Source: an uncultured Methanosarcinales archaeon
GTDB taxonomy: Archaea; Nanobdellota; Nanobdellia; Woesearchaeales; GW2011-AR15
DNA: 64,000 bases
Reading direction: 5' to 3'
Assembly: GCA_964428335.1 (NCBI GenBank)
Contig: CAYRXW010000003.1
Coordinates: forward strand, 54,246 to 118,245
The notes below the pieces were generated by a model, which had not been told where the DNA came from, ran no database searches, and saw only the letters and a list, made by a program, of their open reading frames with translations. The translations under genes and the position numbers were made by a program. Positions 23,230 through 31,946 of this stretch are shown here, piece after piece. Every line of letters starts with the position of its first letter. Within the stretch, counting starts at the first letter, position 1.

Positions 23230-23376
23230 ATGGGGCGAAAGACGGTAGCTTTAAGCGTAAATGCTGAAATCTATGATATGTACAAGGCATTCTGTGAAGA
23301 GAATTCCATAATACTTTCTCGTAAGTTTGATGCTTTTATGAAAAAGGAATTACAGAAGGCAGGTAAACATGAATAA
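23230..23376 (+). CDS. small ribbon-helix-helix protein overlapping the hsdR start (candidate controller of the RM operon)
   Basis: 48 aa [48 protein letters not shown]; RHH-like beta strand plus two helices; stop overlaps hsdR ATG by 8 nt; below the 60-aa track cutoff. Confidence 0.45.
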
Positions 23377-25699
23377 GAAAGACCTAACTGAAACAGACAT
23401 ATGTACAAAATACATTACGCCTGCAATAGTTCATGCTGGATGGAATTTGCAAGGTCAAATACGACAAGAAGTATTTTTTACAAATGGAAGAATTATAATT
23501 AATGGAGATAAGGTCACGAGAGGAGAAAAGAAAAGAGCAGACTATATTCTCTACTATAAACCAAACATACCTATCGCAATTATTGAAGCAAAAGACAATA
23601 ATCACTCTGTTGGTGCAGGTCTTCAACAAGGGTTAGGTTATGGTGAAACATTGGACTTACCTTTTGTTTTTAGTTCTAACGGAGATGCTTTCATAGAACA
23701 TGATAGAACTGGAACTTCAAAAAAGGTTGAAAAAGAATTGTCTTTAACAGAATTTCCTAAACCCGAAGAGCTTTGGGAAAGATACAAAAAATGGAAAGGA
23801 ATAAGCACAAAAGAAGAGACTATTATTACTCAAGATTATCATATGGGTGCTACAACTAATAAGCCAAGATATTATCAAGAAATAGCAATTAACAGAACTG
23901 TTGAAGCAATAGCAAAAGGTCAAGATAGAATTTTATTAGTTATGGCAACAGGCACAGGAAAAACATTTGTTGCATCACAAATAATCTACAAGTTATGGAA
24001 ATCTAAAGCTAAGAAAAGAATATTATTTTTAGCCGATAGAAATATTCTTATCGACCAAACAAAGAATAATGATTTTAAGATTTTCAAAGGAGCTATGACT
24101 AAGATATCCCATAGAAAAATCGATAAATCATACGAAATTTATTTAGCTCTTTATCAAGGAATGACTGGAGAAGATGATTTGAAAAATATCTATAAAGAAT
24201 TCTCAAAAGATTTCTTCGACCTAATAGTAATAGATGAGTGTCATAGAGGAAGTGCATCTGCGGACTCTGCATGGAGAGAAATATTAACCTATTTCAAAGA
24301 TGCTACGCAAATAGGATTAACTGCGACACCTAAGGAAACAAAAGAAATATCTAATTCAGATTATTTCAGAGAACCAATTTACACATACTCGCTAAAACAA
24401 GGTATTGACGACGGATTCTTAGCACCTTATAGAGTTATCAGAATATCTTTAGATAAAGATGTTGAAGGATGGAGACCAACAAAAGGTAAAAAGGATAAAT
24501 ACGGAAACCTAGTTCCTGATAGAGTTTACAATTCTAAAGATTTTGATAGAGATTTAGTTATTGACGAAAGAACGACCCTTGTCGCTAAAAAAGTAACTGA
24601 ATTCTTAAAAAATACTGATAGAATGGACAAAACTATTGTGTTCTGCATAGATATAGACCATGCTGAAAGAATGAGGATGGCACTAGCAAATTATAATTCT
24701 GATTTAGTTTCAAAAGATGTTAGGTATGTAATGAAGATTACAGGTGATGATGATATTGGCAAAAAACAATTAGACAATTTCATAGACCCTTCTAGTAAAT
24801 ATCCTGTGATTGCAACAACTTCCAAATTAATGACAACGGGTGTTGATGCACAAACTTGTAAACTGATAGTTCTAGATTCAAATATTCAATCGATGACAGA
24901 ATTTAAACAGATAATTGGAAGAGGAACAAGAATAAGAGAAGATTATGGAAAATACTATTTTACTATCATGGATTTTAGACAAGTAACAAATCTATTTGCA
25001 GACCCTGATTTCGATGGAGACCCAGTTCAAATATACGAACCAGACCCTGATGAAGTTCTAAAACTACCAGAGATTAATGAAGCTGAAAAGATTTACGCTT
25101 TACCTATTGACCAAATAAAGATTTCTGAAGCTAAAGAAACTCCACGAAAATATTATGTGAATAATGTTCAAGTTTCAGTCTTAAATGAGAGAATACAATA
25201 TTATGATAAGAATGGAAAATTAATTACTGAATCTTTGAAAGACTTCAGCAAAAAATCAATCAAGAAAGAATACTCTTCACTTAATAACTTCATTCAGAAA
25301 TGGAATAGCACTGATAAAAAATCAGTAATTATAGATGAATTAACCAATCAAGGCGTATTACTTCACGAACTTAAAAAAGAAGTTGGAAAAGAGTTTGATG
25401 AGTTTGATTTGATATGTCATGTTGCTTTTGATAAGAAACCATTGACGAGAAAGGAAAGAGCAAACAATGTCAAGAAACGAAACTATTTCACAAATTATGG
25501 TGAAAAAGCAAAAGCAGTTCTAAACGCACTTCTAGATAAATATGCAGATGAAGGACTGGAAAATATCGAAGATATAAGCGTATTAAAAGTAAATCCTTTT
25601 ACGAAGTTTGGAACTCCGATTGAGATAATCAGAGCGTTTGGTGGAAAAGAGAAATACCATGACGCATTAATAGAATTAGAGCAGGAATTATATGCTTAA
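23369..25699 (+). CDS. hsdR: type I restriction enzyme R subunit
   Basis: VMATGTGKT Walker [11 protein letters not shown] (DEAH box), 776 aa. Confidence 0.9.
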
Positions 25700-25708
25700 G
25701 AGGGAAAA

Positions 25709-29375: not shown

Positions 29376-29974
29376 TGGATACTCAGATAAATCAACTGAT
29401 AGAACGAATTGGAGAGAAACAACTCACTCCTTCTATTAATTTAGAGAGACCTATTTTTGTTCAACCAGAAGATTTGATTAAATACCGTGCATCAAGAATA
29501 ATCTTAATCTGTGGTATGATAAATACTAAAAATGGATTAAGTAGGGAAATTATATCCTGTGTAGATTTTCTTCTTAGAAATAGCGGATATCAAAAGAAGT
29601 TTATCATTGAGTATTTCAAAGACCAAAAGAACTTATTGGAAAAAATAAATAAATATACACCACAAAATAATGTGGAAACTGATTTTAATATCATTCAATA
29701 CAAAAGTGTGCCTTGGGACTTACGATTTAACGATATGTTTTTATTCTTGTATGTGAGAAAATTAGTACGATTCATGGGAGAAAAATCAAATCTACGAGTA
29801 TTTTTGACAGATACAGGTATGAATTACTTTGAAAATTTAAAAGACGTATTTTTAGATGAAGTTAACTTTTTAGAGATATTTGGCAAAAGATTAGATGAAG
29901 AAAAAACAAAAGAAATAATTACCCAAGTAATACCTAATGCGTATTGGCGAGAAAATGAGAAACTTAATTATTAA
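29351..29974 (+). CDS. hypothetical protein, middle gene of the three-gene module (LmuC-like position)
   Basis: 207 aa; overlaps both neighbours by 25 and 38 nt. Confidence 0.35.
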   Translation: MPIGLEKMMDTQINQLIERIGEKQLTPSINLERPIFVQPEDLIKYRASRIILICGMINTKNGLSREIISCVDFLLRNSGYQKKFIIEYFKDQKNLLEKINKYTPQNNVETDFNIIQYKSVPWDLRFNDMFLFLYVRKLVRFMGEKSNLRVFLTDTGMNYFENLKDVFLDEVNFLEIFGKRLDEEKTKEIITQVIPNAYWRENEKLNY

Positions 29975-31946
29975 TCGTTTAAAATACTGTATAACTTGTC
30001 GAGATGGTACTAGATATGGTGCTGATATAAAGTTTAGAAAAGAATTGAATATTATCTTTGGACCAAATTCAGTTGGAAAAAGTAGCATAATTACTGGAAT
30101 AATCTACGGATTAGGTGCTGAAAAGAATTTAGGAATTTTCCAAAATACGCAAAACCCATTTAAACCAGAATTTCATAAGGAAATAGAAGGAAAAGTTATT
30201 TCTGATTCGTATTTACTTTTAGAAATATCCAACGGCAAAACAACATTATGCATTAAGCGAAACATAATTGGTTACACAAATATTGCTGAAATAAAGGAGA
30301 GCACTATTGAAACTTTTGAAAAGACAAATGACTCTCTCAAATTGATTATTGAAGGGAAAGGTGTTTTAGAGGATAATGGTTTTCAGAAATACCTTTATGA
30401 TTTTTTGAATTGGAACACTGTTGAAGTACCAAAATTTGAAGGTGGTTCTTCAAAGCTATATTTTGAAAATTTAGTTCCTTTGTTTTTTGTTGAACAAAGA
30501 GCAGGTTGGTCAGAAATTCAAGCAAGACAGGTTCAGAAATATGGTATAAGGGATATTAAAAAAGTAGCGTTTGAATATTTGATGGGCTTGAACAAATTTG
30601 ATATTCACATTATTGAATTACAGAAAAAGGAGATTCTAGAAAAGATAAATTTGATGAAAGAAGACCTTACACTAAAAGAAACTAATATTCTAATATACGG
30701 AAATGCGACTATTAATGATGGCGGTGTTCTTTTCGCAGAAAGACCTAATCACGCTAAAATGCCTATACTTGATATAATCAAAGAATTAAAGGAAGATTTG
30801 AGTGAGCGAGAATCCTCTCTTCTTAAACTTCAAAAACAAAAAGAGACTGCTGATAGCTTTGAAAATAGAAGCAGAGATGAATTAAGGCAAGTTTCTCATT
30901 CAAAAAGGGTCGCTAATGATAAAGTGTCAACTTTAATGAGGGAAATTAGTAGTTACAAAGGGTACATTGATAAAATTGAAATAAATAAGAAAAAAAATCT
31001 TCAATTAAAAAAAATCAACCAAGTATCGGATGAATTAAACATTTCGTATTGTCCAATTTGTCAATCAGAATTAAATAGCAATGAAGAAGGAACTTGTAAA
31101 TTATGTCATTCTGATATTACTAAGATATCTACTCCTGATGAGAATATATGCTTCTTAGAAGATGAAAAAGCATCTTTTGAAAAGATTATATCTATTAAAG
31201 CTGTTGATTTAGAAAGAGCAAAAAAGAATTATGAAGATTTGTTGGAAAATGAAAAGCAAATTAAGGAAAGGATAGATTTTCAACTAAAAACTTATTACGG
31301 CGAAGAACTGAATAAGCTAAGAGAAAGAATAACTGAAGCAGATTCTATCAGCAGAGATATTGATAAATACCAAAAAATCATAAATCAATGGAATCAATTA
31401 GGAAAAATTAGAAATGACATAACTCAGTTAATCAATAAAGAAAAGGAATTAAGAGAAACAATAAAAAAATATTCCGAGACTGTTAACGACCAGAAAATAC
31501 TTTCATCGGTACTACAAAACTTCAAAGGAAATATTGAAAAATTACGATTATTTAAATCAAAAGAAGAACTAATTAAAGAACTAAAATTAGACAATGAAGA
31601 AAATTATACTCCTTACTTACCGAATTATGATTTGTACAACATTAGCAGTTCAAGTGACAACATAAGAATAATTATCAGTTATTATCTTGCCTTATTACAA
31701 ACCTCAATTCAAATAGACAGCGATAGAATTAAATTTCCAAATCTGTTAATTTTAGACGAGCCAAAACAACAAAATCTGGATAATAGCGAAATTAAGAACT
31801 GTGTGGAAATAGTGGAGCAATTACCAAAGAAGACTTGGCAAATTATTCTAACAACATATCAAGAGCAAGACAAAACTATTTTCGATAAGTATATTATTCA
31901 TGAGATGAAGGATTCCAAAGATTATTTACTAAAGAAACAACCTTGA
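29937..31946 (+). CDS. SMC/Rad50-like ABC ATPase with coiled coil and central CxxC zinc hook (candidate LmuB-like)
   Basis: N-terminal Walker A IIFGPNSVGKSS, long coiled coil, CPICQSELNSNEEGTCKLCHS in the middle, C-terminal Walker B LLILDEP. Confidence 0.65.
   Translation: MRIGEKMRNLIINRLKYCITCRDGTRYGADIKFRKELNIIFGPNSVGKSSIITGIIYGLGAEKNLGIFQNTQNPFKPEFHKEIEGKVISDSYLLLEISNGKTTLCIKRNIIGYTNIAEIKESTIETFEKTNDSLKLIIEGKGVLEDNGFQKYLYDFLNWNTVEVPKFEGGSSKLYFENLVPLFFVEQRAGWSEIQARQVQKYGIRDIKKVAFEYLMGLNKFDIHIIELQKKEILEKINLMKEDLTLKETNILIYGNATINDGGVLFAERPNHAKMPILDIIKELKEDLSERESSLLKLQKQKETADSFENRSRDELRQVSHSKRVANDKVSTLMREISSYKGYIDKIEINKKKNLQLKKINQVSDELNISYCPICQSELNSNEEGTCKLCHSDITKISTPDENICFLEDEKASFEKIISIKAVDLERAKKNYEDLLENEKQIKERIDFQLKTYYGEELNKLRERITEADSISRDIDKYQKIINQWNQLGKIRNDITQLINKEKELRETIKKYSETVNDQKILSSVLQNFKGNIEKLRLFKSKEELIKELKLDNEENYTPYLPNYDLYNISSSSDNIRIIISYYLALLQTSIQIDSDRIKFPNLLILDEPKQQNLDNSEIKNCVEIVEQLPKKTWQIILTTYQEQDKTIFDKYIIHEMKDSKDYLLKKQP

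Follow-up and report, generated by a model that had tools for sequence, protein, structure and literature searches.

Two defence layers in one predicted operon: type I restriction-modification and Lamassu genes on an integrative element of a DPANN-like archaeon

Why would a complete type I restriction-modification (RM) gene set run straight on, gene overlapping gene, into a second defence system? The question is raised by seven same-strand genes at 23230-31946 of a 64,000-nucleotide (nt) stretch of archaeal contig CAYRXW010000003.1 (the window, by which we mean the whole stretch analysed), where a short leader gene, hsdR, hsdM and hsdS are followed by three genes whose products resemble the Lamassu proteins LmuA, LmuC and LmuB. 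An earlier annotation made from the sequence alone, here called the original prediction, had read the group as a translationally coupled defence operon on a mobile element and had suggested cross-talk between its two halves. We consider it probable that the locus is one polycistronic operon on an integrative element, holding two complete and separable systems that are coupled for co-regulation and co-transfer and not as obligate partners.

All seven open reading frames (ORFs) of the original prediction are present on the plus strand, and every junction between them is an overlap or a spacer of at most 9 nt. Read directly from the sequence, the leader gene (23230-23376) overlaps hsdR (23369-25699) by 8 nt, a 9-nt spacer with no overlap separates hsdR from hsdM (25709-27139), hsdM and hsdS (27136-28425) share the 4 nt of an ATGA, and hsdS and lmuA (28425-29375) share 1 nt in a TAATG. 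At the last two junctions the overlap depends on the start codon. The 207-amino-acid (aa) lmuC ORF (29351-29974) overlaps lmuA by 25 nt when counted from its first ATG (29351) and by 4 nt, again as ATGA, if Met8 (29372) is the start; the latter is probably correct, giving a gene at 29372-29974. The 669-aa lmuB ORF (29937-31946) overlaps lmuC by 38 nt from its first ATG (29937) and by 20 nt from Met7 (29955). Because the overlap is exactly 20 nt in relatives with inspected gene calls, equal to that given by Met7, and because PADLOC alignments of LmuB begin at residues 7-10 of the 669-aa ORF, the start is most likely at 29955 and the gene at 29955-31946. The overlaps listed in the original prediction (8 nt, 4 nt, TAATG and, from the first ATG codons, 25 and 38 nt) can all be found, save that the 38-nt lmuC/lmuB overlap is probably one of 20 nt.

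Archaeal operons usually have a leaderless first gene and internal genes led by Shine-Dalgarno motifs. Here a GAGG-like Shine-Dalgarno motif lies 8-16 nt 5′ of each internal gene, that of lmuA being a GAGGGG 11-16 nt 5′ of its start, and the internal junctions leave no intergenic room for a separate promoter. From this layout we infer that the leader gene, hsdRMS and lmuACB are read as a single transcript. Three nucleotides past the lmuB stop stands a plus-strand T6 run (31949-31954), after which 355 nt hold no ORF on the operon's strand; the run hints weakly at a possible archaeal terminator. Separately, the window has three copies of a 21-nt motif (AATTGGAGAGATAATGAGAAA and variants), at 17632-17652, 18699-18719 and 29942-29962; the first lies just past an ORF at 17075-17623 and the third spans the likely lmuB start. 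The motif may reflect a common ribosome-binding context, or chance.

The hsd genes encode full-length type I RM subunits, as had been claimed, with Pfam and PADLOC matches that cover the whole proteins. HsdR is a restriction subunit of the EcoEI_R_C type (PADLOC REase_I, E = 0, residues 1-775; Pfam ResIII, EcoEI_R_C and HSDR_N), HsdM an N6-adenine methyltransferase subunit (Pfam N6_Mtase, 1.4e-71, and HsdM_N; PADLOC MTase_I, 2.3e-209) and HsdS a specificity subunit (Pfam Methylase_S in two matched stretches; PADLOC Specificity_I, 1.6e-61). IIEAK, DECH and NPPF motifs can be seen in the translations, NPPF in HsdM. Type I RM systems methylate their own DNA and cleave unmodified DNA, making double-strand breaks. 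The eight-gene system MADS (mad1-mad8) was rejected as an identity for the locus: in PADLOC, HsdM and HsdS are matched by mad2 and mad5 much more weakly than by the type I models, mad8 (1.3e-4) and mad3 (7e-4) match LmuB against 2.4e-59 for the LmuB model, and the remaining mad genes are absent.

Profile matches and domain content support reading the 316-, 207- and 669-aa proteins as a complete short three-gene (type II) Lamassu in the order lmuA-lmuC-lmuB, with an Mrr-like effector. LmuB matches PADLOC model PDLC03863 at 2.4e-59 across residues 10-638 and LmuC matches PDLC03869 over its full length (1.1e-5; 20 of 20 family members match the same model, the best at 7e-10), and LmuA is assigned by its domains. 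The likeness to DdmABC-type Lamassu, with its order of effector, small protein and structural maintenance of chromosomes (SMC) protein, is borne out by these matches. Anticodon nucleases of the PrrC/RloC type had been named as what the three proteins might turn out to be instead; no such model appears among their PADLOC matches (E ≤ 0.1), where LmuB models dominate. LmuC gives no match to a Pfam ABC-3C middle-component family at E ≤ 0.1.

LmuB has the Walker A (GPNSVGKS) and Walker B (LLILDEP) attributed to it earlier, and its middle region is rich in helices. Walker A in the form GPNSVGK[ST], Walker B and two CxxC pairs (C366/C369 and C381/C384) are invariant across 22 LmuB homologues. Its N- and C-terminal ends both match Rad50 head sequences in the PDB, which at the level of sequence agrees with the SMC head that the original prediction had held out as a point on which it could fail. 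The CxxC pairs (within window positions 30993-31106; residues 366-384 counted from Met7) lie 11 residues apart in the middle of the helical region, giving four cysteines per protomer where Rad50 has a single CxxC.

LmuA combines a PD-(D/E)xK effector domain (residues ~1-125) with a helical ABC-3C C-terminal domain (~150-310). Its own sequence has no significant match in Pfam or PADLOC, and a PDB sequence search with the LmuA profile returned nothing useful, leaving even solved LmuA chains unmatched. AlphaFold gives an alpha/beta N-domain and a helical C-domain (predicted local distance difference test (pLDDT) 87); in Foldseek the former matches the nuclease domains of FokI, Cap4, MspJI and EcoT38I, and the best structural match of the latter is solved LmuA. 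Across 40 homologues, E9, D42 and E60-C-K62 do not vary. These invariant residues and fold matches agree with the Mrr-like PD-(D/E)xK nuclease domain first proposed for this protein. Judged from the alignments, the predicted catalytic residues of the effector domain are intact, and the window proteins retain all the predicted catalytic and nucleotide-binding residues that the Lamassu mechanism needs.

The LmuA N-domain is not confined to Lamassu. In a profile search of 1.8 billion representatives it recurs as the N-terminal module of many ~1,400-aa proteins, and four of the five long proteins that were scanned carry a NACHT domain. The matches show a predicted effector module common to Lamassu and to systems resembling nucleotide-binding leucine-rich repeat (NLR) proteins, in keeping with a point made in the literature, that Lamassu and Avs-type proteins have effectors in common. 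The same nuclease domain is also found inside multidomain proteins of at least 1,700 aa, of which some contain TIR, Roc-COR, pentapeptide or WD40 domains.

What would control such an operon? A TATA-box-like TTTATAAA (23199-23206, plus strand) lies 31 nt 5′ of the leader ATG and may act as an archaeal promoter, and a palindrome, ATATGA-GT-TCATAT (23218-23231), covers the leader start codon as a putative operator and occurs once in the window. The 48-aa leader itself has 16 database homologues and no Pfam match. Its AlphaFold2 monomer model (pLDDT 73) has an extended segment at residues 1-11 and helices at 12-24 and 31-46, and finds no match in Foldseek; the best PDB sequence match is weak (2kel_A, 'protein 56B', E = 0.11) and is to what we take to be the ribbon-helix-helix (RHH) regulator SvtR of virus SIRV1. 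The leader is probably a regulator of this class, its fold being suggestive only.

Homologous leader genes carry the same arrangement in front of quite different neighbours. A TATA-like box stands at an equal distance (31-32 nt) before them in nine loci, and the palindrome is kept in six (L007 and L069-L073) and partly kept in L074-L077; the cassettes sit at 8517-8551 in L007 and at ~1500-1537 in L069, before leader genes of 47-50 aa. Leaders at 83-87% identity adjoin hsdR in operons of the order leader-hsdR-hsdM-hsdS, whose HsdR proteins belong to two families, those at 64% adjoin a type II N6/N4 methyltransferase gene, and in L007 a 63%-identical leader ends 13 nt 5′ of lmuA with no hsd genes in between. 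The layout of TATA-like box and start-codon palindrome, or a variant of it, is common to the leader homologues before hsdR, the methyltransferase gene and lmuA. We read leader and promoter as a candidate portable control cassette for archaeal RM operons, and the position after hsdS as a variable cargo slot. As to history, hsdRMS may have been inserted between leader and lmuA, or it may have been lost in L007.

In being small, putatively DNA-binding and first in its operon, with a palindrome over its own start, the leader resembles the controller (C) proteins of RM systems, and by that analogy the layout suggests autoregulation and delayed restriction after transfer. C proteins belong to type II systems and have a helix-turn-helix fold; the leader, by contrast, looks RHH-like and stands at the head of type I operons in archaea.

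The integrative element spans 20,398 bp (15681-36078), 43% of which is taken up by the operon. A tyrosine integrase gene (15766-17073, plus strand; Pfam Phage_integrase, 2.3e-21; PHROG integrase, 1.5e-21) stands at its left end, and its termini are 25-nt inverted repeats, AAATATTGCTTTATGAATACTTTAT at 15681-15705 matching the reverse complement of 36054-36078 at 23 of 25 nt. Outside these lie two copies of a 7-bp direct repeat, TGCACCA (15674-15680 and 36079-36085), either an attachment (att) core or a target duplication. The element splits a host gene for a protein with two phospholipase D (PLD) domains and a lamin-tail domain (LTD): its 5′ part (14911-15696, plus strand; Pfam PLDc_2) is truncated, ending in TMHQNIAL, and its 3′ part (36079-36605, plus strand) holds a stretch of PLDc_2 (profile positions 81-130) and the LTD. 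Deleting 15681-36085 in silico restores an in-frame 427-aa PLD-PLD-LTD ORF with its HKD motif, MHHKVFIID, intact; the reconstructed empty site reads …ACGATGCACCATAAGG… and the expected circular junction …GCAATATTT-TGCACCA-AAATATTGC…. GC content is 29.3% in the element against 35.3% in the flanks, with the drop between ~16 and 36 kb. The mobile element of the original prediction thereby gains exact boundaries, and by its sequence features it is a tyrosine-recombinase integrative element. The interrupted host protein is signal-peptide-like and secreted-nuclease-like, and the break falls inside its second HKD motif.

The element ends were located through the two partial PLD domains, after which the junctions were aligned by hand; a generic search for direct repeats across 14.5-37 kb turned up no att site, and the 64-kb window contains no tRNA or Rfam RNA to act as an integration target. 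Besides the integrase, a helix-turn-helix protein and a weak match to a nuclease/phosphatase family, the other element genes are without a match in Pfam, PADLOC and PHROGs, and in the same scans nothing on the element was recognised as a gene for replication, conjugation or virions. Among the genes without a significant match are those for a 549-aa protein (32302-33951, minus strand) and a 338-aa protein (35041-36057, plus strand), searched in all three databases, and for a 314-aa protein just ahead of the operon (22215-23159, plus strand), searched in Pfam and PADLOC. In the chromosomal flank, the best named relatives of a deoxyhypusine synthase (at most 84% identity) are all Woesearchaeota or Nanoarchaeota. 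This agrees with the DPANN-like host already proposed and supports a Woesearchaeota-like one.

A well-bounded element of this kind raises the possibility that the pair serves the element itself, the RM system as an addiction module and the Lamassu as a remover of competing plasmids or viruses. RM systems can act selfishly, as addiction modules. The share of the element taken up by the operon, together with the integrase and defined ends, is in keeping with such a role, as is a leader whose apparent likeness to RM controller logic would be useful on entering a new host; published work shows that DdmABC Lamassu eliminates plasmids. The absence of recognised replication, conjugation and virion genes speaks against it, however, and sequence data do not show whether it is the element or the host that benefits. 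This account overlaps with that of two co-mobilised layers, and as an explanation in its own right we regard it as unlikely.

Whether the two systems need each other can be judged from where else the trio and the slot occur. Homologues of LmuA are scarce, forming 44 clusters at 90% identity and about four full-length ones at 50%, and come mainly from Bacteroidota and Methanosarcina; the closest, at 68% identity, is that of L007, a Nanoarchaeia metagenome-assembled genome. In IMG/VR, the LmuA profile matched a single weak fragment. The order lmuA-lmuC-lmuB is kept wherever the sequence crosses the trio (61 distinct loci). Upstream neighbours were compared wherever the upstream sequence reaches 3 kb or more, which is so in 36 loci. 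Type I hsd genes lie within 10 kb in 5 of these and are missing from the other 31, and none of the 36 has hsdS directly before lmuA, a junction whose conservation had been put forward as a check.

A tight association of this kind is seen in Flavobacterium ponti (L028, 7212-20677), where hsdR is followed after a 2-nt gap by lmuACB, which overlaps hsdS by 8 nt; PtuA/PtuB, two further genes and hsdM come next. Its LmuA, LmuC and LmuB are 44%, 54% and 48% identical to those of the window. Flavobacterium sp. DSR3-2 (L014) shares the layout, with hsdR split into two ORFs (7213-9996) and lmuC in two frames (10965-11539), frameshifts that suggest decay or sequencing errors. An hsdR match at an equal distance 5′ of lmuA suggests the same arrangement in L045. 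Linkage is looser, though on the same strand, in L008, where the trio comes after hsdM-hsdS-hsdR and two small ORFs. The Flavobacterium loci differ from the window in being bacterial, in having the trio between hsdR and hsdS, in their HsdR family, in lacking a leader and in the embedded Septu. The Septu of L028 matches at 7e-110 for PtuA and 4e-25 for PtuB, and the two genes before hsdM encode 543 and 219 aa.

The converse comparison follows the slot in place of the trio. Archaeal leader-hsdRMS operons (L069-L072 and a 119.8-kb JGI contig) resemble the window operon in their 47-48-aa leader, promoter and palindrome and in an extra gene coupled to the end of hsdS. That gene differs from lmuA in each case described: in L069 it encodes a 669-aa protein (7607-9616) with a DNGTG motif, GHKL-ATPase-like and without a PADLOC match, and in the JGI contig a protein of more than 830 aa (6770 to beyond 9101), both unrelated to Lamassu. 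The two genes are candidate uncharacterised defence genes.

These comparisons bear on a second alternative, in which restriction primes the Lamassu: ends made on an invader by HsdR would activate LmuB/LmuC, and failed or overwhelmed restriction would lead to suicide through LmuA, all under one RHH-controlled promoter. In its favour, type I enzymes make double-strand breaks and published Lamassu complexes bind DNA ends and are activated by them, and the independent tight linkage in the window and in Flavobacterium, with looser linkage in L008, would be as expected. Against it, 31 of the 36 loci have no type I RM nearby, from which it follows that the trio functions without one; sister leader-hsdRMS operons hold unrelated genes in the post-hsdS slot; and suicide at every restriction event would cancel the benefit of restriction. 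We find this version doubtful, and somewhat less credible than service to the element. Two independent, co-transcribed layers are best supported, because the trio mostly occurs without RM genes and unrelated genes follow hsdS elsewhere.

Several observations nonetheless weigh against two independent layers under common control. The trio became tightly linked to type I RM genes on at least two independent occasions (window; Flavobacterium), and such repetition could reflect selection for more than co-regulation. The identification of the trio has soft spots: the window LmuA is unmatched by the PADLOC LmuA models, which 7 of 40 family members do match, and its sole Pfam hint is a non-significant one (E = 0.043) to an 'inactive' restriction endonuclease family. 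In the PDB sequence search the LmuB profile misses the solved LmuB chains and reaches only Rad50, and the transfer of the mechanism therefore rests on family membership. As to control, an RHH fold and DNA binding are no more than plausible for the leader. AT-rich archaeal coding sequence can conceal internal promoters, an A/T-rich ATTTAATG lies 17-24 nt 5′ of lmuA, and T6 runs, the usual archaeal terminator signal, are present within the operon as well as after it. That lmuACB has its own promoter in the 3′ end of hsdS, the TAATG being mere compaction of the kind usual in DPANN genomes and mobile elements, would accommodate that motif and the internal T6 runs, yet is very improbable: ATTTAATG is nearer to its ATG than the 31-32 nt of the leader promoter, the GAGGGG motif fits internal initiation on a polycistronic RNA, and in L007 lmuA sits 13 nt behind the leader gene without a promoter region of its own.

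How, then, might two co-mobilised layers work? The probable RHH leader, with a leaderless-type promoter and palindromic operator, would control the whole operon, presumably by repression. The EcoEI-type type I RM system would methylate self DNA and cut unmodified incoming DNA. For the second layer, published cryo-electron microscopy studies of Lamassu describe LmuA as a monomer that is kept sequestered by LmuC and a dimer of LmuB, until DNA-end binding frees it to form an oligomeric active nuclease. By analogy with these solved complexes, an LmuB dimer and LmuC would hold one LmuA monomer inactive here; binding of DNA ends or replication intermediates would release it; and freed LmuA would oligomerise, its PD-(D/E)xK domain degrading DNA so that infection is aborted. 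RM and Lamassu would act as successive layers. For this host, both the activation mechanism and a function against viruses are taken over from the solved systems and may hold in the same form.

The locus is of interest as a well-delimited, horizontally acquired defence element in DPANN archaea, where defence is little studied and a single paper was found to mention both DPANN and Lamassu. The slot after hsdS, behind the leader cassette, offers a practical starting point in the search for more defence genes, and the locus is a natural construct for asking whether restriction-made DNA ends feed an end-sensing abortive infection system.

Both modules, and the nesting of defence genes in type I RM operons, have been described already, and the locus is not a new kind of system. 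The novelty first attached to it was overstated in view of the Flavobacterium ponti embedding, the published cases of embedding in type I RM and a trio that mostly stands alone. In a literature search that covered the embedding survey cited below by its main text, we found no published account of Lamassu joined to hsdRMS and none that names Lamassu as embedded in type I RM, nor did we find one of Lamassu specifically in DPANN archaea. Lamassu with Mrr-type effectors, and Lamassu in a few archaeal genomes, are already published, and the length of LmuB, a Walker B fitting hhhhD[Q/S/T/E] and two CxxC copies are within published Lamassu diversity. Embedding in type I RM operons is known from TgvAB on VPI-2 of Vibrio cholerae, from PrrC/RloC and from a 'guilt-by-embedding' survey, which reports that embedded defence systems share the orientation of the host system in 96.7% of cases and proposes co-regulation (Payne et al. 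2024). Like TgvAB and PrrC/RloC, the window trio is a second defence system that shares the strand of an hsd operon and lies within it or next to it. Unlike them, it follows hsdS and does not stand between hsd genes, and it is complete and otherwise autonomous, in contrast to the RM-dependent PrrC.

Among Lamassu systems themselves, the closest parallels are V. cholerae DdmABC, Salmonella enterica LmuACB and the Mrr-effector subtype, which the trio resembles in gene order, an LmuB of ~660 aa (with Walker A, a Walker B of the pattern given above, a coiled coil and CxxC motifs), a small LmuC and the architecture of LmuA. It differs from the solved systems in its effector, a PD-(D/E)xK nuclease of the Mrr/NACHT-associated type where those have a Cap4-type nuclease. 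Its Walker B keeps the canonical glutamate (DE), where one structural paper on Lamassu describes a glutamine, and its LmuB has two CxxC pairs per protomer, where that of V. cholerae has no CxxC. The window trio further differs from these parallels in being archaeal, co-operonic with hsdRMS and strongly diverged in sequence.

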